This document shows positions 1-5,893 of a DNA stretch of 5,893 nt, one piece after another. Both the position numbers and the translations under genes were made by a program. The stretch comes from a virus (Duplodnaviria > Heunggongvirae > Uroviricota > Caudoviricetes). Every line of letters starts with the position of its first letter. The stretch's first letter is position 1. The stretch lies in IMG/VR virus record IMGVR_UViG_2698536372_000022; one strand, given 5' to 3'. The notes below the pieces were generated by a model. That model was given only the letters and a program-made list of their open reading frames with translations, searched no databases and was not told the origin of the DNA.

Positions 1-197
1 CCAGGTTTATCCTCGCAGACAATAAATTTATAAGCGCAGTCCTGAGCAGCCGGATAATGTTCCAGGAACTGCCAGTGAAATTTTGCTCGAGCACGGCGTT
101 CGTCGCCAGCTTCAATGGCTGTGGCTACAGCCACAGAGCCTTCTTCCCTTGTTGCCAGTTCGTCAGGAATAGCGGCGCAAATAAAGACTTTACTCAT
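1..197 (-). CDS. 5' part of a prophage gene in the ydfE position (hypothetical protein); gene runs off the left edge of the window
   Basis: ATG at 195-197 on the minus strand, with GAGG about 10 nt upstream. The frame stays open to position 1, reading MSKVFICAAIPDELATREEGSVAVATAIEAGDERRARAKFHWQFLEHYPAAQDCAYKFIVCEDKP. It lies directly downstream of ydfD in the same orientation, as ydfE does in Qin-type prophages. The identification is by position, not by sequence recall. Confidence 0.6.
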   Translation of the reverse strand, partial: MSKVFICAAIPDELATREEGSVAVATAIEAGDERRARAKFHWQFLEHYPAAQDCAYKFIVCEDKP

Positions 198-290
198 TTT
201 GTTTTAACCTCATGACAGATTTAAGGATGAACAAATCCCTGCCATTGCTGGCATATAAGAATGAAACCGGATATTTATTACGGAACTGTT

Positions 291-482
291 TTAAAGACCT
301 GCCGGGATTTCGATATTATCCTGGTGAATAACTTTATCGACCGGGTAACAGTTACCGGGAATTTTCTGTTCGGTTGCTGCAGTCATACACTCCTGCATTG
401 TCCTGTGAACACTGACTGCAATATCAACTGGCACTCCGGAAACAAGAAAAACTGTCAGAACAAGCGCAAATGCTGAATTCAT
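291..482 (-). CDS. ydfD: YdfD-family small prophage lysis protein (63 aa)
   Basis: Internal Met of the 291..536 ORF gives MNSAFALVLTVFLVSGVPVDIAVSVHRTMQECMTAATEQKIPGNCYPVDKVIHQDNIEIPAGL, which matches E. coli YdfD as I recall it. Its ATG (480-482) overlaps the dicB stop (479-481) as ATGA, suggesting translational coupling. It has an N-terminal hydrophobic segment. Confidence 0.85.
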   Translation of the reverse strand: MNSAFALVLTVFLVSGVPVDIAVSVHRTMQECMTAATEQKIPGNCYPVDKVIHQDNIEIPAGL

Positions 483-667
483 TGTGCACATCCTTTTGGC
501 ATCAGACGTAAACGAGCCAGCATTGAAACAATGCATATTTTATTTAATAGCTCCCGTTCTTGTTTTCTCTTGTTAATGGCATCTTCAGTAAATACAGGGT
601 TACTGATAGTGACACCAATTTCAAAACAACCTTCAGACGTATTAACGTTTGGTAATAACGTTTTCAT
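479..667 (-). CDS. dicB: Cell-division inhibitor DicB (62 aa; acts with MinC on FtsZ)
   Basis: Internal Met of the 479..772 ORF gives MKTLLPNVNTSEGCFEIGVTISNPVFTEDAINKRKQERELLNKICIVSMLARLRLMPKGCAQ, which is the E. coli DicB sequence as I recall it. GAGGA lies about 9 nt upstream of the ATG at 665-667 on the minus strand. The longer N-terminal extension in the ORF track has no ribosome-binding site and is not expected. Confidence 0.9.
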   Translation of the reverse strand: MKTLLPNVNTSEGCFEIGVTISNPVFTEDAINKRKQERELLNKICIVSMLARLRLMPKGCAQ

Positions 668-836
668 TATCGCGTCCTCAACAATGAATTTTGTGATGCA
701 GTGCCTGGTGCCTCCAGGTGACGTTAACCAGTTAACAATTAACGTCGGATACAGAGAATCCACCCATAACACTGTTTTTGGTTTTAACTGTTCCGCGTGC
801 GCTTAGCCGTATTCACCGCATCACAAAATTCACTTT

Positions 837-894
837 AAAAAGGGCGGCAGAGCAGTCACGGAGTAAAACTGATACCGCCAAACGTCACCAGAAA
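837..894 (-). ncRNA. dicF: DicF small regulatory RNA (53-nt mature sRNA plus U-tail of its intrinsic terminator)
   Basis: Reverse complement of 842-894 reads TTTCTGGTGACGTTTGGCGGTATCAGTTTTACTCCGTGACTGCTCTGCCGCCC, followed by TTTTT (837-841). This is the DicF sequence as I recall it, with its GC stem and U-tract terminator. It sits between the ydfB/ydfC region and dicB, as in the Qin dicB operon. Confidence 0.9.
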
Positions 895-1153
895 ATTGAT
901 AACAGAGGGCGTTGCAGCGGGGTTGTCACTTAAGCGTATGGTCAACCTGACAACCCGGTGTCCTCAACGGGGAAGGAATAACCCCGCCATACTTACCGCC
1001 GCGCCATTTTGCGGGTTGCCACAACCGGAAGCGCACGGTCGAATTAAATTTAACGACACCGTACAGTGAGACGAACTTCGCCGTGCGCTTTCGTGTTGTG
1101 TGCCTGCTTTTAACCACGTCAGGCGAGGTGGTATCCTTAAAATCACCACAGTT

Positions 1154-1729
1154 TTAAGGATTCATTAAGCAATGTCGCAACCACCAATAAATCCGCTTAA
1201 GAACATGAAAATTGATTACTGGTATAAAGCGCTTACAGTTGTTGGCGCTGCGTTGTTTGTCTTTAATGGAACGTCTTTTTTTGACAGATATCCCGTTGTT
1301 CCATTGGGTTTTTTGTCCTCCGGCATCTTTTTTATTGGTTTGGGGGAGTGGATTAATCACCCTCTCATAGTGAGATTTATTGGTCCTGGAGTTTGGACTC
1401 GTGGATATAATCGTTCTTCGTGCGCACTCGGTATCATCTTCGACATACTTGGTTGTTTCCTGATTGTTACAGGAGTCGTCAAGTTCTTCTGATGTAAAAC
1501 CGCAAATGGGGCACGTAACGGGAATTTTGAAAAGCGTTTCTCCGGGTTCCAGAACAAAATTTTCTGCGGTCTGATTTTGCTTCTCATATTTGTGCTCCGC
1601 GTCATTGTGAGAGCACATTCTTATTCTGAGTGCCTGTTTAAACTCACTGAAGCTGAGAGCTTCTTCGCCTTCGGCAAGGCCTTCGAAGTATTCTTCGTAA
1701 GCCTTTTCCATGATTGTGTTGAAATCCAT
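1154..1729 (-). CDS. YdfB-like prophage protein; open reading frame continues for 191 codons, C-terminal extent uncertain
   Basis: ATG at 1727-1729 on the minus strand lies 1 nt after the ydfA stop, with GGTGAG upstream. The N-terminus MDFNTIMEKAYEEYFEGLAEGEEALSFSEFKQAL is acidic and protein-like and includes a CPICG motif. The frame stays open to 1154, but the last ~100 residues are K/R/N/T-rich low complexity, which is what the antisense of a hydrophobic ORF looks like. The K-12 counterpart is much shorter as I recall. Confidence 0.45.
   Translation of the reverse strand: MDFNTIMEKAYEEYFEGLAEGEEALSFSEFKQALRIRMCSHNDAEHKYEKQNQTAENFVLEPGETLFKIPVTCPICGFTSEELDDSCNNQETTKYVEDDTECARRTIISTSPNSRTNKSHYERVINPLPQTNKKDAGGQKTQWNNGISVKKRRSIKDKQRSANNCKRFIPVINFHVLKRIYWWLRHCLMNP
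1172..1492 (+). CDS. Candidate small membrane protein (106 aa, about 3 hydrophobic segments), convergent with and antisense to the ydfB-like ORF
   Basis: ATG at 1172 with AAGGA 12 nt upstream. Product MSQPPINPLKNMKIDYWYKALTVVGAALFVFNG...GFLSSGIFFIGLGEW...ALGIIFDILGCFLIVTGVVKFF has three hydrophobic stretches of transmembrane length. The ORF contains no TTA, CTA or TCA codons. It is mutually exclusive with the minus-strand ORF over the same bases, so only one can be the selected frame. Confidence 0.3.
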   Translation: MSQPPINPLKNMKIDYWYKALTVVGAALFVFNGTSFFDRYPVVPLGFLSSGIFFIGLGEWINHPLIVRFIGPGVWTRGYNRSSCALGIIFDILGCFLIVTGVVKFF

Positions 1730-1730
1730 A

Positions 1731-1886
1731 TCACTCACCTGAGTTTCTTTCCAGCCAGCGACGGGCACCATTTTCGGTTTTAAACGTTTTGCTTTTGGTA
1801 TACGTCATCGCGGTGAACGTGCCGTCCTGGTTGGGGAACACGCCACATACCAGAGATTCGCTGTTGCCAAGATCGATAGTATCCAT
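1731..1886 (-). CDS. ydfA: YdfA-family small prophage protein (51 aa, DUF1391-like)
   Basis: Internal Met of the 1731..2042 ORF gives MDTIDLGNSESLVCGVFPNQDGTFTAMTYTKSKTFKTENGARRWLERNSGE. GAGGT lies 7-8 nt upstream of the ATG at 1884-1886 on the minus strand. It is the first gene downstream of the dicA-like repressor gene, the ydfA position in Qin. The N-terminal extension in the ORF track is unsupported. Confidence 0.85.
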   Translation of the reverse strand: MDTIDLGNSESLVCGVFPNQDGTFTAMTYTKSKTFKTENGARRWLERNSGE

Positions 1887-1962
1887 GCTGACCTCATTTC
1901 CCCTTAACGCCGGGGTAGCGGAACTGTTTGCTGAGAACACCGTGCGGTGTCTTGATGGAGGT

Positions 1963-1991
1963 AATTTAGTTTTCTCATTATTTTTCGTCAA
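1963..1991 (-). promoter_or_regulatory. Candidate sigma70 promoter of the leftward dicB operon (ydfA-ydfB-dicF-dicB-ydfD)
   Basis: Minus strand reads TTGACG (-35, plus-strand 1986-1991), a 17-nt spacer, then TAAATT (-10, plus-strand 1963-1968). The predicted transcription start is about 70 nt upstream of the ydfA ATG. Operator-like motifs overlap the spacer/-10 and lie just upstream of the -35. Confidence 0.5.
1964..1977. promoter_or_regulatory. Operator-like site O3 (imperfect TGAG-N4-CTAAA) overlapping the -10/spacer of the dicB-operon promoter
   Basis: Minus strand reads aTGAGAAAACTAAA. It shares the 10-nt core TGAGAAAACT with the sites at 2001-2014 and 2537-2550. Confidence 0.4.
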
Positions 1992-2000
1992 GGTTTTTTG

Positions 2001-2014
2001 ATGAGAAAACTCAA
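2001..2014. promoter_or_regulatory. Operator-like site O2 (ATGAG-AAAA-CTCAA) immediately upstream of the dicB-operon -35
   Basis: Plus strand reads aTGAGAAAACTCAA at 2001-2014. It shares a 13-nt core with the palindromic site in the dicA/dicC intergenic region. Confidence 0.45.
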
Positions 2015-2078
2015 GTGTTGGCGCAAGATAAAGCCAATACATTGAAATGTAAGGCTTTAAAATTTTGTGAAGGGATGA

Positions 2079-2486
2079 TTATTGATGCTTGTTGCGTTTG
2101 CGAGCCTCTAATAGCTCGGTGAACAGGCGATTAAAATTCTCAACGCGGGCGCGGAGTTCGCTGAGTTGTGCTTGTTGCTCTGATTTAGGAAGTGCGCGAT
2201 ACAAACGCAGCATCTCTAACTCATCTTCCGATAAGTCTAAGGCACTATCGAGTGAAACAGGGGGAGCTGGTGTTTTGTCCTCGTCGCCAAACAGTATCCA
2301 AGTTGGTGAACATTGCAATACCTCGGCGAGGCGATGCAAATTTTGCCCGCGCGGGGCTGTATGGTCACTTTCCCATAATGAAATTGATGAGCCAGATACG
2401 CCAGCAGCTTTGCTTAAACCGTTTTGACTTAAGCCTACCTGCTTACGTCTTTCTCTAATGCGTTGACCTAAAGTTTTCTCGTTCAT
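2079..2486 (-). CDS. dicA: DicA-like prophage repressor (XRE-family HTH, 135 aa; no S24 peptidase domain)
   Basis: From the second Met the product is MNEKTLGQRIRERRKQVGLSQNGLSKAAGVSGSSISLWESDHTAPRGQNLHRLAEVLQCSPTWILFGDEDK... It aligns along its full length with E. coli DicA as I recall it (METKNLTIGERIRYRRKNL...VLQCSPTWILFGDEDK) and has the same length. There is no Shine-Dalgarno before the ATG at 2484-2486, so it is leaderless-like, as is common for cI-type genes. It is divergent from the cro-like gene. Confidence 0.9.
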   Translation of the reverse strand: MNEKTLGQRIRERRKQVGLSQNGLSKAAGVSGSSISLWESDHTAPRGQNLHRLAEVLQCSPTWILFGDEDKTPAPPVSLDSALDLSEDELEMLRLYRALPKSEQQAQLSELRARVENFNRLFTELLEARKRNKHQ

Positions 2487-2507
2487 ATTTAGATATCTTA
2501 ATAACCC

Positions 2508-2537
2508 TTGACTTGAGATTCCTTGAGTGATTAGCAT
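2508..2537 (+). promoter_or_regulatory. Candidate rightward early promoter for the dicC-like operon
   Basis: TTGACT (2508-2513), an 18-nt spacer, then TAGCAT (2532-2537). The palindromic operator at 2537-2550 sits at the predicted transcription start. TTGAG half-sites recur at 2513, 2523 and 2537 with 10-bp spacing. Confidence 0.4.
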
Positions 2538-2550
2538 TGAGAAAACTCAA
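2537..2550. promoter_or_regulatory. Operator-like palindrome O1 (TTGAG-AAAA-CTCAA) in the dicA/dicC divergent intergenic region
   Basis: Perfect 5-bp inverted half-sites around an A4 centre, located between the divergent repressor and cro-like genes. The same core is found at the dicB-operon promoter. Confidence 0.5.
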
Positions 2551-2563
2551 TATTGGAGGTGCG

Positions 2564-2791
2564 ATGTTTAAATCAGACGTAATTAATTTTTACGGTACGA
2601 AAGCCAAAGTAGCGAAAGCTGCTGGCGTTGACCCATCTGCTGTTTCTCAATGGCAAGAGCTGGTTCCTGAAGGTCGCGCGATGCGTCTACAGGAGGCATC
2701 TGGCGGCGAGCTTCTGTATGATCCCAAGGTTTATGACGAATATCGTAAGACGAAGCGGGCGGGGCGGTTGAACAATGAAAATCACTCCTGA
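2564..2791 (+). CDS. dicC: DicC/Cro-like transcriptional regulator (75 aa, YdaS/DicC family HTH)
   Basis: ATG at 2564 with GGAGG 4 nt upstream. Product MFKSDVINFYGTKAKVAKAAGVDPSAVSQWQELVPEGRAMRLQEASGGELLYDPKVYDEYRKTKRAGRLNNENHS. The C-terminal half matches E. coli DicC as I recall it. It is divergent from the repressor gene. The TTG start at 2537 in the ORF track is less likely. Confidence 0.85.
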   Translation: MFKSDVINFYGTKAKVAKAAGVDPSAVSQWQELVPEGRAMRLQEASGGELLYDPKVYDEYRKTKRAGRLNNENHS

Positions 2792-3296
2792 ACAGGCTCG
2801 TGAGGCTCTGGATGCCTGGATATGTCGACCAGGAATGACACAGGAGCAGGCGACGATATTAATCACTGAAGCATTCTGGGCTTTGAAAGAGCGCCCGAAC
2901 ATCGATGTTCAGCGTGTCACAGATGAAGGTGGCGCGGTTGATCAGCGAGCACTTGGCGTTAATCGAGTGAAGATATTCGAACGCTGGAAGGCTATCGACA
3001 CCAGGGATAAGCGTGAAAAGTTCACGGCGCTAGTGCCTGCAATTATGGAGGCTATTCGGATTAATGATTTCAGGTTGTATCGTGAAATTAGTGACGGAAA
3101 AAGCATCACGTACATGATCGCCGGGTTAAACAAAGAATATGGCGATGTGGTGGAGTCCGGACTGCTTTTTGCTGATCCTGCCGTAGTGGATCGTGAAACT
3201 GACGAACTTATAGAAAAAGCAATTGCTTTCAAACTTGCGTATCGACAGCAATACCAACAAAAAGCTGGATGGAATTATGAGCCTTCTTTTTGCTGA
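2775..3296 (+). CDS. ydaT: YdaT-family protein (PF06254-like; proposed CII-equivalent regulator, historically annotated as toxin YdaT)
   Basis: The N-terminus MKITPEQAREALDAW and the block KIFERWKAIDTRDKREKFTALVPAIMEAI follow the pattern of Rac YdaT as I recall it (MKI...RW...REK...L.PAI). It overlaps the dicC-like stop by 17 nt and lies in the cII position of the early-right operon. Confidence 0.8.
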   Translation: MKITPEQAREALDAWICRPGMTQEQATILITEAFWALKERPNIDVQRVTDEGGAVDQRALGVNRVKIFERWKAIDTRDKREKFTALVPAIMEAIRINDFRLYREISDGKSITYMIAGLNKEYGDVVESGLLFADPAVVDRETDELIEKAIAFKLAYRQQYQQKAGWNYEPSFC

Positions 3297-4242
3297 ACGC
3301 CCACTGGTTATAAACACACAGCTTGCGATGAAGATTGGCTTAAATGAAGCCATTGTGTTGCAGCAGTTGCATTACTGGTTGAGAGATACCAATTCCGGCA
3401 TGGAATGTGATGGTGTTCGCTGGATTTACAACACAACGGAACAATGGCTGGAACAGTTCCCATTCTGGTCAGAGTCAACGTTAAAGCGCGCGTTTGCAAG
3501 TCTGAAAACGCTGGGGCTTTTGCGTTGTGAAAAGCTCAATAAATCAAAGCGCGATATGACCAATTTCTACACGATCAACTACGGGAGCGAGCTTTTAGAT
3601 GGTGGCAAATTGAGCGAATCCATCGGTTTAAAATGCGCCGCTCCATCAGGTCAAAATGACACGATGGAAGAGGTCAAAATGAAACGCTCCATTGGTTCAA
3701 AACGACCCAATGTCATCGGGTCAAAATGGCCTGATGATCTTACAGAGAATACAACAGAGATTACTACAGAGAATAAAAACACTTTTCGTCCGGAAGCTTC
3801 GCAACCGGACCAGCAGACCGCTGAACAGGATTTTTTAACCCGGAACCCCGACGCGGTTGTGTTTAGTGCGAAAAAACGCCAGTGGGGTAGCAGGGAGGAT
3901 TTGGCGTGTGCGCAGTGGATTTGGGGGCGGATCGTGAACCTTTACGAACAGGCTGCCAGCGACGATGGAGAGATCATGCGACCAAAAGAGCCTAACTGGA
4001 CAGCCTGGGCCAATGACGTGCGCACAATGCGGATGCTGGATGGCAGAAGCCACAGACAAATTTGCGAAATGTTTGGTCGGGTACAGCGAGATCAATTCTG
4101 GGTAAAAAACATCATGAGCCCGTCAAAACTCCGCGAAAAATGGGACGAACTGGTCATCCGCCTGGGACGTTCACCTGTACAGCGTTGTGTGAATCATATT
4201 TCTGAACCGGATACAGAAATTCCGCCTGGTTTCAGGGGATAA
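3277..4242 (+). CDS. Phage replication initiation protein (O-like replisome organizer with C-terminal DnaT-like domain)
   Basis: From the ATG at 3277 the N-terminal region (MSLLFAERPLVINTQLAMKIGLNEAIVLQQLHYWL...) resembles the phage replisome-organizer N-domain. The C-terminal region (NWTAWANDVRTMRMLDGRSHRQICEMFGRVQRDQFWVKNIMSPSKLREKWDE) resembles the DnaT C-terminal domain. The central linker is encoded by iteron repeats. The gene overlaps the ydaT-like stop by 20 nt. The TTG at 3223 is a less likely start. Confidence 0.85.
   Translation: MSLLFAERPLVINTQLAMKIGLNEAIVLQQLHYWLRDTNSGMECDGVRWIYNTTEQWLEQFPFWSESTLKRAFASLKTLGLLRCEKLNKSKRDMTNFYTINYGSELLDGGKLSESIGLKCAAPSGQNDTMEEVKMKRSIGSKRPNVIGSKWPDDLTENTTEITTENKNTFRPEASQPDQQTAEQDFLTRNPDAVVFSAKKRQWGSREDLACAQWIWGRIVNLYEQAASDDGEIMRPKEPNWTAWANDVRTMRMLDGRSHRQICEMFGRVQRDQFWVKNIMSPSKLREKWDELVIRLGRSPVQRCVNHISEPDTEIPPGFRG
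3625..3728. repeat. Iteron array (5 copies of GGTCAAAATG-like repeat, about 23-24 bp period) inside the O-like gene; putative prophage replication origin
   Basis: GGTTTAAAATG at 3625, GGTCAAAATG at 3649, GGTCAAAATG at 3672, GGTTCAAAACG at 3694 and GGTCAAAATG at 3719. The protein linker they encode is correspondingly repetitive (SIGLK / IGSKRP / IGSKWP). Confidence 0.6.
3739..3790. repeat. AT-rich region with three ACAGAGA(A/T)TA direct repeats immediately downstream of the iterons (candidate DNA-unwinding element of the origin)
   Basis: Sequence cttACAGAGAATAcaACAGAGATTActACAGAGAATAaaaacac. It sits in the same position relative to the iterons as the AT-rich segment of lambda ori within gene O. 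Confidence 0.45.
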
Positions 4243-4282
4243 GTGTTGATTTTAGGGTATAAAGTAATGTTCAGGAGGACTT

Positions 4283-4702
4283 GTGGCAAAAGTTTTTACA
4301 CAAGAAGAGCGGGAAAAAATTAAAGGGCAGGTGGTGGAACTCGTACGCCAGAGTGGGCGCGAGACGTTACGACAACTGGAAGCTAAAACTGGGGCAACAA
4401 GATATCTGATGAGCGTTCTGGCCAGAGAGCTGGTTGCCAGTGGCGATGTATACAGCTCTGGTTACGGGTTATTCCCGTCTGAACAGGCGCGTAAGGACTG
4501 GCAAAACGCCCGCAAAAAACTCTCGAGGGCAAAGGTGAAGAAACCTGCTGTGGTTGATCCGGACCTTATCTGGTCATTACCTGACGGAGAAATACGTCGC
4601 TACGACAGTCGTCTAAACATAATCTGTCGCGAGTGCCGGAAGGCAAGGAGAAGCAGGCTATTGTTAACACCAAGCTGTAATGTCCCCTTTGAACCATTCT
4701 AA
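4283..4702 (+). CDS. Hypothetical basic protein (139 aa), function unknown; possibly a remnant of a replication/helicase-loader module gene
   Basis: GTG start at 4283 with AGGAGG 5 nt upstream. Product MAKVFTQEEREKIKGQVVELVRQSGRETLRQLEAKTGATRYLMSVLARELVASGDV... is lysine/arginine-rich with a possible HTH-like segment and a CRECR motif. A GC hairpin plus T-tract follows the stop. I recognise no family for it. Confidence 0.6.
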   Translation: MAKVFTQEEREKIKGQVVELVRQSGRETLRQLEAKTGATRYLMSVLARELVASGDVYSSGYGLFPSEQARKDWQNARKKLSRAKVKKPAVVDPDLIWSLPDGEIRRYDSRLNIICRECRKARRSRLLLTPSCNVPFEPF

Positions 4703-4707
4703 AATGT

Positions 4708-4734
4708 CCCCAGACAATTCTCTGGGGGATTTTT
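4708..4734 (+). terminator. Intrinsic-terminator-like hairpin (7-bp GC stem CCCCAGA/TCTGGGG, 6-nt loop, T5 tract) between the hypothetical gene and the transposase start
   Basis: CCCCAGA (4708-4714), loop caattc, TCTGGGG (4721-4727), then gaTTTTT (4728-4734). It ends 1 nt before the transposase ATG at 4736. It could equally be a structure at the IS end that blocks read-through. Confidence 0.35.
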
Positions 4735-4735
4735 C

Positions 4736-5830
4736 ATGATCAAAGAGACTGTTACGATGAGTCATAAGGAACTCCACCGACTTCAGATTATTCAGGAGTC
4801 AATTAATCGACATATTACTCAGGAACAAGCTGCGGCACGCATTGGCATTTCTATTCGGCAGGTTAAACGTCTGGTGCAACGGTATAGAAATGAAGGGCCT
4901 TCTGGTCTGGTTTCCCACCGACGTGGAAAGCGTCCTAATAATTCCTTTTCTACTGAATTCAGAGCAACAGTAATTTCACTCCTCAAAGGCCGTTACGCTG
5001 ATTTTGGACCTACGTTTGCGTGCGAAAAATTGCGCGAGATACACGGTTTATCTTTATCCGTTGAAACTCTCAGAAAGTGGATGATAGAAGAGGGGTTATG
5101 GCGTGAACGCCGTCGTAAAATTGCCCGTATATATCAACGCCGCATGCGACGACCATCTTACGGTGAACTGATCCAGATTGATGGCTCACCTCATGACTGG
5201 TTTGAAAATCGAGGCCCCAGATGTACACTGATCGTTTTCATTGATGATGCCACCAGTGCGTTGATGGCGTTGCGTTTTGTGCCTGCTGAAACAACCCGGG
5301 CTTACATGGAAACCCTCCGGGGTTACCTTAATGATCATGGCGTACCGCTCGCTCTCTACTCTGATAGACACAGTATATTCAGGGTAAATAACCCAGAGCG
5401 GGAAGGTGAGCTGACCCAGTTCACTCGTGCGATAAAGACACTGGGCATCGAGCCAATCCATGCCAACAGCCCGCAGGCAAAAGGGCGGGTAGAGCGCGCC
5501 AATCAGACACTACAGGACAGGCTGGTCAAAGAAATGCGGCTTCAGAATATCAGTGATATTGAAACAGCAAATGCATGGTTGCCGACCTTTATTGAAGCCT
5601 ATAACAACCGGTTCGCTACGTCGCCTCGTACTACTGATAATGCTCATCTTGATGTGCACCATTCTGAAGAGGAACTGGGTTATATCTTCAGCCTACAGGC
5701 GAAGCGCGTTCTGTCTAAAAATCTCACTTTCCAGTACAAAAGCAGTGCGTTTCAGGTACGCAGTGAGGGCCGGGGATATCGACTTAGGCATTCGGTTGTT
5801 ACTGTATGTGAGAACTTTGAGGTAGCCTGA
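4736..5830 (+). CDS. DDE transposase of the rve (retroviral-integrase-like) superfamily with N-terminal HTH; IS481/ISNCY/IS21-IstA-like
   Basis: The N-terminal HTH region reads AARIGISIRQVKRLVQRY. The catalytic core has the DDE arrangement: D in QIDGSPHDW, D in LYSDRHSIF, and E in the KGRVERANQ signature typical of rve transposases. Alternative start at ATG 4757 (MSHKEL...). The exact IS family is not resolved from memory. Confidence 0.85.
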   Translation: MIKETVTMSHKELHRLQIIQESINRHITQEQAAARIGISIRQVKRLVQRYRNEGPSGLVSHRRGKRPNNSFSTEFRATVISLLKGRYADFGPTFACEKLREIHGLSLSVETLRKWMIEEGLWRERRRKIARIYQRRMRRPSYGELIQIDGSPHDWFENRGPRCTLIVFIDDATSALMALRFVPAETTRAYMETLRGYLNDHGVPLALYSDRHSIFRVNNPEREGELTQFTRAIKTLGIEPIHANSPQAKGRVERANQTLQDRLVKEMRLQNISDIETANAWLPTFIEAYNNRFATSPRTTDNAHLDVHHSEEELGYIFSLQAKRVLSKNLTFQYKSSAFQVRSEGRGYRLRHSVVTVCENFEVA

Positions 5831-5881
5831 GTTTAACGGACACTCCTTCCTGAAATAGAATGGCATCAGAAGGAGCTAATA

Positions 5882-5893
5882 ATGAGCAGAAAA
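5882..5893 (+). CDS. Start of a downstream gene (first 4 codons, MSRK); possibly a second IS gene or passenger
   Basis: ATG at 5882 is preceded by AGGAG (5871-5875) at 6-nt spacing, 51 nt after the transposase stop. Only 12 nt are in the window. Confidence 0.3.

Follow-up and report, generated by a model that had tools for sequence, protein, structure and literature searches.

In lambda and Rac the gene for the replication initiator is followed by a P or DnaC-like gene. In the window analyzed here, a stretch of 5,893 bp recorded as DNA of a Caudoviricetes virus (IMG/VR record IMGVR_UViG_2698536372_000022), an O-like initiator gene is followed by a small open reading frame (ORF) and then by a transposase gene (4283-5893). 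This raises the question whether an insertion sequence (IS) has taken the place of a helicase loader gene and inactivated the replication module, as was claimed in an earlier note on this DNA. The window belongs to the early part of a Qin-like lambdoid prophage and comprises the whole of draft contig CYEF01000088.1 (GCA_001283205.2), the right edge of which lies inside a repeat. Comparison with related prophages, phages and plasmids indicates that the locus very likely represents a decay scar of three layers, i.e. a relBE transposon at a hok site, a deletion and a nested IS600. The earlier note was right about the mobile element and the truncated ORF, and all ORFs and features that it described were found where it had placed them. 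Its headline was wrong on the position of the element, its family, the downstream gene and the consequence.

The transposase

The ORF of 364 amino acids (aa) at 4736-5830 encodes helix-turn-helix (HTH) domains at its N-terminus (HTH_28, HTH_29 and HTH_32) and an rve_3 integrase core (29.1 bits, cut-off 26.5), in agreement with its first description as an rve-family transposase with an N-terminal HTH. It is cut after codon 361 and is, over the shared part, identical to the allele of the O26:H11 strain 11368 (hereafter O26), which encodes a full protein of 446 aa. This full allele matches the model NF033594 (transpos_ISNCY_2) at 1.2e-139 and 465.5 bits, with a cut-off of 250, over model positions 1-365 of 368. 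In contrast, the IS21 model NF033546 (transpos_IS21) yields 55.7 bits, below its cut-off of 160. The O26 allele displays what is expected of the IS1202 family (profile match, HTH and DDE domains, length of ~394-507 aa), and the intact protein is named 'IS1202-like element ISEsa1 family transposase' in RefSeq/NCBI. Judged by these models, the transposase is of the ISNCY/IS1202 family, ISEsa1 type, and not of IS21; the istA/istB arrangement suggested before does not apply.

In O26 the uninterrupted 446-aa ORF (locus L001, 6537-7877) is split by RefSeq/PGAP into a gene annotated as 'partial, missing C-terminus' and 'ydfW'; the plasmid counterpart WP_004196353.1, likewise 446 aa, is annotated as intact. 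That PGAP breaks an intact transposase into a partial transposase plus ydfW is of practical use for annotation.

A relBE transposon in the start of a hok gene

The left part of the ISEsa1-type transposon occupies 4662-5817 (+), with the transposase gene at 4736-5817 (361 of 446 codons). Only the left inverted repeat (IRL; TGTTAACACCAAGCTGTAATGTCCCC... from 4662) and the left copy of the target-site duplication (TSD; 4647-4661) lie within the window. In O26 the complete unit runs from TGTTAACACC… to …GCGTTGACA and measures 3,301 bp (L001 6463-9763). Its ends are TGT…ACA, and the IRL (TGTTAACACCAAGC…) and the reverse-complemented right inverted repeat (IRR; TGTCAACGCAAAGC…) are identical at 23 of 36 positions. 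The position of the IRL was the same in seven independent loci. From left to right the element harbours the gene for the 446-aa DDE transposase, a Xer site, flxA, ydfV, relB and relE. The internal Xer site is cer/dif-like (GGTGCGCGTAA-TGAGGCG-TTATGGTAAAT, L001 8014-8042), and 34 nucleotides (nt) over it (L001 8012-8045) are 100% identical in a 4.3-kb plasmid.

The 15-mer GGAGAAGCAGGCTAT flanks the element on both sides in O26 and E. coli W and is present as a single copy in the Escherichia phage HannyBb. It consists of the hok Shine-Dalgarno sequence and the 'AT' of the hok start codon. Subgroups of the IS1202 family duplicate 5-6, 15-17 or 27-28 bp of target, and the 15-16 bp observed in the various loci, together with the TGT/ACA termini and the transposase profile, assign the element to this family. 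The left flank in E. coli W, Enterobacter and IncHI2 plasmids is the hok leader, which reads …AAGGAGAAG(C/A)AGGC(T/C)AT and is followed by TGTTAACACC…, and at the other end the hokD start of O26, W and K-12 is preceded by …GCTTTGCGTTGACA followed by GGAGAAGCAGGCTATG. HannyBb displays the empty site, …GGAGAAGCAGGCTATGAAGCAG…, within an intact hok/sok locus, where sok is recognized by Rfam (RF01794, 115.3 bits, L013 7062-7236) and is followed by the Hok ORF. In the window, where 28 bp of the leader are left, Rfam detected no sok.

The inverted ends, the target duplication and the empty site in relatives identify a true mobile element. Hundreds of Qin-type prophages of E. coli carry it in one and the same position, as would also be expected of a phage gene that had been domesticated there, but the site is empty in HannyBb and in the Escherichia phage mEp460_ev081, and hok loci on plasmids of Enterobacter, Klebsiella, Salmonella and Citrobacter contain a 99.6% identical element flanked by their own TSDs. 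Domestication is therefore extremely improbable.

Two other ways of delimiting or placing the element were rejected. A 1,648-bp IS, bounded where O26 and the Enterobacter plasmid AR_0073 cease matching (L001 6435-8082), would have the hok leader as its left 28 bp, and its right boundary shows no inverted repeat, just AATGTCC motifs in direct orientation. Targeting of a Xer site, as by relatives of the ISAba32 type, does not fit: the Xer site lies within the element, neither its side nor its orientation is the right one, and no dif-like site is present left of the IRL. Furthermore, a plasmid segment homologous to L001 7919-8083 that had seemed to be free of the IS turned out to be a remnant of the element cut by IS26.

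The deletion that joined the DUF977 gene to the hok leader

The 139-aa ORF at 4283-4702 (+, GTG start), initially regarded as unrecognised, is a DUF977/Ren-like gene that is truncated at its 3' end. Residues 1-121 match Pfam DUF977 (PF06163, 4.1e-22) over profile positions 1-115 of 134, and the ORF matches phrog_142 ('Ren-like exclusion protein') over profile positions 1-98 of 116, so that coverage is partial for both families and the match is not full-length. The intact 140-aa homologue of E. coli W covers positions 1-115 of 116 of phrog_142. Codons 1-119 are native and align well with intact homologues up to ...ICRECRK. Codons 120-139 are foreign and encode ARRSRLLLTPSCNVPFEPF followed by a stop, where intact homologues read SEVMQR(V/I)L(T/A)FYQGN…; this tail stems from 19 bp of hok leader and the left end of the transposon. 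The earlier suggestion that the ORF might be a 5' remnant with foreign C-terminal codons thus proved correct, and the truncated DUF977 protein is probably non-functional.

The junction was located by multiple alignment of intact DUF977 genes with the window, O26 and E. coli W. The DUF977 homology stops at 4642, and the intact relatives continue differently. After TGCCGGAAG (4634-4642) the window and O26 both read GCAAGGAGAAGCAGGCTAT, a stretch of 19 bp that ends the hok leader (4643-4661, +) and contains the left TSD copy; the IRL follows at 4662. At 4634-4642 TGCCGGAAG of the DUF977 gene is fused to TGCCGAAAG of the hok/sok leader (as read in W and HannyBb), and the two share 8 of 9 positions. 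In E. coli W the DUF977 gene is intact, and the transposase gene follows ~2 kb downstream, past a methyltransferase gene and two decayed ORFs. Compared with E. coli W the deletion measures 1,989 bp (blastn), and compared with HannyBb 1,607 bp (coordinates); it removed the 3' end of the DUF977 gene, the methyltransferase gene, small ORFs and nearly the whole sok/mok leader. Of 5,426 complete E. coli genomes, 106 share this junction, O26:H11 among them. An illegitimate deletion across the 8/9 microhomology appears to be the simplest account of this junction.

The left end of the transposon is located just 19 bp past the end of the DUF977 homology, which would also agree with a direct insertion of the ISEsa1-type element at the DUF977 3' end without any deletion. 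However, those 19 bp are hok leader and include the 15-bp TSD sequence that recurs next to hokD, at the element's other end. Moreover, E. coli W and the Escherichia phage PhiR42_1 carry the same element at the hok site, preceded by ~2 kb of phage genes and an intact DUF977 gene, and microhomology of this extent is typical of illegitimate deletion. Direct insertion is thus highly unlikely. A deletion mediated by the IS end into adjacent DNA was also considered and rejected, since 19 bp of target DNA including the TSD copy lie between the junction and the IRL.

IS600 in the transposase gene

The last 76 nt of the window (5818-5893, +) are identical (76/76) to the start of the annotated IS600 (IS3 family) in strain 95_0274 (NZ_CP074785.1), with the left inverted repeat TGAGGTAGCCTGAG... 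and the start of orfA (ATG at 5882, MSRK). O26 continues past 5823 as the uninterrupted 446-aa transposase ORF, and it is concluded from this that IS600 lies nested within the transposase gene, where it follows codon 361. The bases 5818-5820 (TGA) can be assigned to the transposase gene or to IS600. The last three residues of the 364-aa ORF (EVA) and its stop codon (5828-5830, +), which lies within the inverted repeat, are encoded by IS600: the ORF ends in ...CENFEVA*, and O26 reads ...CENFDGEINVLYDG... at this point. A second gene with a Shine-Dalgarno sequence had been proposed 51 nt after the transposase stop. Indeed, the ATG at 5882 is preceded by GAAGGAG at this distance and reads MSRK to the end of the window; it is the start of IS600 orfA, not of an istB-like AAA+ helper with a Walker A motif, and the transposase ORF itself runs on in O26.

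The contig ends at IS600 because the assembler halted in the repeat. Apart from this 5.9-kb contig itself, a contig search with the window returned only a 1.3-kb Logan contig; both are terminated by IS600. The exact junction between the transposase gene and IS600 was found in none of the 5,426 complete E. coli genomes; in three of them (CE10, IAI39 and N32) IS600 lies ~165 bp away from the junction point of the window. IS600 very probably disables the transposase gene in this strain, and the truncated transposase is predicted to be non-functional.

The replication module and the missing helicase loader

The O-like initiator gene (3277-4242, +) encodes 321 aa and matches phrog_391 ('replication initiation O-like', 4.8e-93) over profile positions 11-298 of 298, i.e. 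over its full length. Its product is identical to that of mEp460_ev081 at 319 and to that of HannyBb at 313 of 321 positions. As start codon RefSeq has chosen the ATG at 3277, which gives a 20-nt overlap with the cII-like gene; with the in-frame TTG upstream, at 3223, the product would be 339 aa long.

Window positions 1-4642 align with HannyBb without gaps at 98.5% DNA identity, and over 2537-4642 identity is 98.3% with mEp460_ev081 and 97.5% with HannyBb. Positions 2663-4642 are 96.4% identical to PhiR42_1, and O26 is 99.98% identical to the window over 1-5823. The cI-type repressor (2079-2537, -) is identical to that of HannyBb (152/152), as is the product of the YdaT/cII-like gene (2775-3296, +; 173/173), and that of the P22-Cro-like gene (2564-2791, +) differs at one position from HannyBb Cro (74/75). 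In view of the gap-free alignment and the near-identity of the repressor, Cro, cII-like and O-like proteins, the replication gene is considered intact. The sequence gives no support for the claim that the replication module has been inactivated.

In HannyBb and mEp460_ev081 the gene order is repressor, cro, cII-like, O-like (321 aa), DUF977/Ren-like and methyltransferase, with nothing intervening, and in the prophages of E. coli W and CUVET21-1780 the DUF977 gene also directly follows the O-like gene. No loader-like gene was found between or after the O-like and DUF977 genes in these four, nor in the window. Among the annotations of the whole 45-kb HannyBb record, which comprise head, tail, integrase, exonuclease, lysis and Q-like genes, there is no helicase or loader. 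The sole loader-sized ORF in the region, 228 aa in HannyBb, was identified as QueH and rejected as a candidate. Judging from these relatives, and contrary to the expectation of the earlier note, no phage helicase loader is to be expected at the 4283-5893 locus.

That an IS, possibly IS21-like, had settled in the position of the loader gene and knocked out the replication module was suggested by the lambda and Rac order and by the position of the transposase gene, two genes past the O-like gene. This is very improbable, since intact relatives, two phage genome records among them, have no loader-like gene, the O-like gene is undamaged, the IS21 model scores far under its cut-off and the second gene is IS600 orfA. 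Furthermore, the target of the element was hok and not the replication genes: it went into the hok/sok locus, 1.6-2 kb further downstream, and was brought next to them by a deletion that was a separate event. The lambda template of O followed by P does not fit this widespread phage group, and therefore a 'missing loader' is not to be scored as damage here.

The last 21 codons of the O-like gene (4180-4242) encode VQRCVNHISEPDTEIPPGFRG, which is identical at 14 of 21 positions to the extreme C-terminus of E. coli DnaT (PDB 2RU8 and 9ZBT chain D were used for comparison). A DnaT-like tail is common to several unrelated PHROG replication families (phrog_3729, 18526 and 1701). It may be that this tail is a peptide for docking to the host primosome that spares such phages a loader of their own. 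The DnaT residues that touch PriA are not stated in the accessible part of the DnaT preprimosome paper (PMC13377028).

Proposed order of events

Four steps would lead to the locus as found, the second to the fourth of which were traced by comparing sequences. The ancestor would have been of the HannyBb/mEp460 type, with genes for repressor, Cro, cII-like, O-like and DUF977 proteins, a methyltransferase, small genes, hok/sok and rem. It would have belonged to a type without a phage-encoded helicase loader, its O-like initiator working without one, possibly by way of the DnaT-like tail recruiting the host primosome or DnaB-DnaC. An ISEsa1-type transposon would then have entered the Shine-Dalgarno sequence and start codon of hok with a 15-bp duplication. 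This insertion would have severed the hok gene from the sok/mok leader and left it behind relBE, the relB-relE-hokD arrangement of K-12. Subsequently, a deletion of 1.6-2.0 kb from TGCCGGAAG to TGCCGAAAG would have left the transposon 28 bp (including the 9-mer of the junction) after DUF977 codon 119. Finally, IS600 would have inserted into the transposase gene after codon 361 in this strain. The window itself would thus be an ordinary scar; in cryptic prophages of E. coli and Shigella it is routine to meet IS insertions, deletions at microhomologies and nested copies of IS600.

Several points weigh against this order of events. The right end of the transposon, the right TSD copy and relBE lie outside the contig and were deduced from the 99.98% identical relatives. 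Many plasmid copies of the element end ~1.61-1.65 kb from the left end, which matches the 1,609 bp of the catalogued ISEsa1. The absence of a loader from HannyBb rests on annotation and on family scans of five HannyBb/mEp460 ORFs. Beyond IS600 either a simple insertion or an IS600-mediated deletion could have occurred.

Distribution and choice of target

In PhiR42_1 (PV340562.1, 11493-14766), the sole record of the phage collection with the complete 3.3-kb relBE transposon, the element lies downstream of the same replication module at a distance of ~2 kb, in the arrangement that preceded the deletion. The 99.6% identical copy of plasmid pEnt261 resides in the plasmid hok locus with a duplication of its own, GGAGAAGAAGGCCAT, which is found at both ends of the element in pEnt261 and in the IncHI2 plasmids. 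An IncHI2 hok locus harbours a 6,093-bp version with ISEsa2, cytochrome b and a CDF transporter as cargo and a 15-bp duplication. A 4,155-bp version with DUF2158 and other cargo and a 16-bp duplication is present in a Citrobacter freundii plasmid. The cargo differs from 30-40 bp past the Xer site to just upstream of relB (L001 ~8072-8082 to 9051). These data hint at Xer-linked exchange of the variable cargo.

A search of GTDB species, with one genome per species, for the 19-mer of the right end gave 38 matches, and in 26 of these relBE is located 61-584 nt inside the right end. Within 2-16 nt after the right end, hok start codons were found that belong to at least seven different Hok proteins. 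HokE-like and Buttiauxella types are among them and have non-homologous flanks (e.g. GATATGCTG… versus GGAGAAGCAGGCTATG), which argues for repeated, oriented transposition into hok starts and not for spread by recombination.

Tandem or adjacent related elements were observed at one hok site (L053 and L049), and one locus (L035) shows an inverted arrangement of the flanks. Related elements with 15-bp duplications at non-hok targets were also found (the pair L020/L032); one of 2,575 bp still encodes RelB and RelE, and one of 1,938 bp has no RelB/RelE match. The 15-bp duplications in L020 and L032 carry two mismatches.

ISEsa1, a member of the IS1202 family (formerly the ISNCY/IS1202 group), is listed in ISfinder as 1,609 bp in length, encoding a transposase of 439 aa, with terminal inverted repeats (TIR) of 15/22 and no TSD (PMC10132070). 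Together with the many plasmid copies that have only ~1.61-1.65 kb in common with the Qin copy, this listing would suit a mobile unit of 1.6 kb, with flxA-ydfV-relBE and the right end having spread among hok loci by homologous recombination. The ends at L001 6463 and 9763 are, however, the inverted TGT…ACA termini, and in each of four contexts a 15-16-bp duplication of the local type abuts both ends. Right ends that abut hok genes with non-homologous flanks are inexplicable by recombination, no inverted repeat can be recognised where the short forms end on the right, and the related 2,575- and 1,938-bp elements have their 15-bp duplications at non-hok sites. A 1.6-kb unit is thus unlikely, and the ~1.61-1.65-kb plasmid copies, for which no right end was demonstrated, are read as cargo-swapped or truncated forms of the relBE transposon. 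The conserved left arm of the latter (L001 6463 to ~8072) measures 1,610 bp, and its transposase is 439 aa from the second Met. Because these values match the ISfinder listing, it is suspected that ISEsa1 was bounded where the cargo starts to vary.

It is proposed that the catalogued ISEsa1 is only the left arm of 3.3-6.1-kb relBE transposons that select the Shine-Dalgarno sequences and starts of hok genes in phages and in IncF/IncHI2 plasmids; the sequence comparisons leave this broader proposal evenly balanced between right and wrong. Such transposons may have a constant right arm of relB-relE and IRR, variable cargo adjacent to the Xer site and 15-16-bp duplications. If this holds, a type II toxin-antitoxin transposon homes into type I toxin-antitoxin loci, and the relB-relE-hokD (relBEF) operon of K-12 Qin was made by one insertion, which uncoupled hok from sok/mok. 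This would give the textbook relBEF operon a concrete and testable origin, and it suggests that the ISEsa1 entry in the catalogue is mis-bounded.

Integration of relBE into hokD was noted earlier (Ramisetty and Santhosh 2016, as cited in PMC6379469), and such toxin-antitoxin modules have been described as moving as bare promoter and ORFs (PMC5120126). Targeting of hok with 15-bp duplications is not mentioned in the surveys of the IS1202 family (PMC10132070; bioRxiv 10.1101/2022.12.17.520857), and in the literature, of which coverage was incomplete, no description was found of the transposon or of its ends, duplication and choice of target. The region thus yields a candidate hok-homing transposon with an addiction module of its own and an initiator with a DnaT-like end, possibly capable of loader-independent helicase recruitment.

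Other features of the window

The earlier note also held that cargo for division inhibition and immunity has been kept. Indeed, dicB (479-667, -) and the small RNA DicF (842-893, -; Rfam RF00039, 76.7 bits) are both present, in addition to the repressor described above. A 205-aa ORF at 1154-1771 (-) has no Pfam family on record and is conserved in HannyBb as CDS0038 ('hypothetical'). The left end of the contig lies inside an exonuclease gene, equivalent to HannyBb L013 965.

Comparison with known systems

The order cro, cII-like, O-like and Ren-like (phrog_142) in the window resembles that of the lambda O-P-ren region, and the O-like protein of the window has an N-terminal replisome-organiser region. 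The window differs from lambda in that it has no P/DnaC-like gene and in that its initiator ends in a DnaT-like tail.

The Qin prophage of K-12 (dicB, dicF, dicA, dicC, ydfX, ydfW, flxA, ydfV, relBE and hokD) is of the same type and carries the transposon at the same hok site. In K-12, ydfW represents the final 49 codons, in frame, of the gene for the ISEsa1-type transposase (L018 2223-2685; L001 7728-7877) and ydfX the N-terminal part of the cII/YdaT-like gene. In contrast to the window, K-12 has undergone another, single deletion, which took the 3' end of the cII-like gene, the O-like gene, the DUF977 gene and three quarters of the transposase gene. The window retains all genes of the replication region and has the DUF977-hok deletion and IS600. 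Of this IS3-family element, the left inverted repeat and the orfA start are recognized in the window, in which only its first 76 nt lie.

The element shares with ISEsa1 the transposase family name, the 439-aa protein and the ~1.6-kb left arm, as judged by the listed figures. It differs from ISEsa1 as a TGT…ACA unit of 3.3-6.1 kb with relBE, variable cargo and 15-16-bp TSDs. Members of the ISTde1 subgroup generate 15-17-bp duplications and have TGT/ACA termini and an HTH + DDE transposase of 394-507 aa (bioRxiv 10.1101/2022.12.17.520857). The element resembles them in its 15-16-bp TSD, its termini and its HTH + DDE transposase, but for this subgroup no target specificity has been reported and only one plasmid copy of its members was found in that survey, whereas the element described here is abundant on IncF/IncHI2 plasmids. 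ISEsa1 has been placed in a separate 'no TSD' branch, apart from the ISTde1 subgroup (Harmer et al.). Members of the ISAba32/ISAjo2/ISKpn21 subgroup insert at dif-like sites, 5 bp away from the XerC arm, and generate 5-bp TSDs (IS1202-family surveys). They belong to the same family and share with the present element oriented, site-selective insertion, tandem insertions at one target and passenger genes. The element described here differs from them in that it enters hok starts, with a 15-bp TSD, and carries its Xer site internally.

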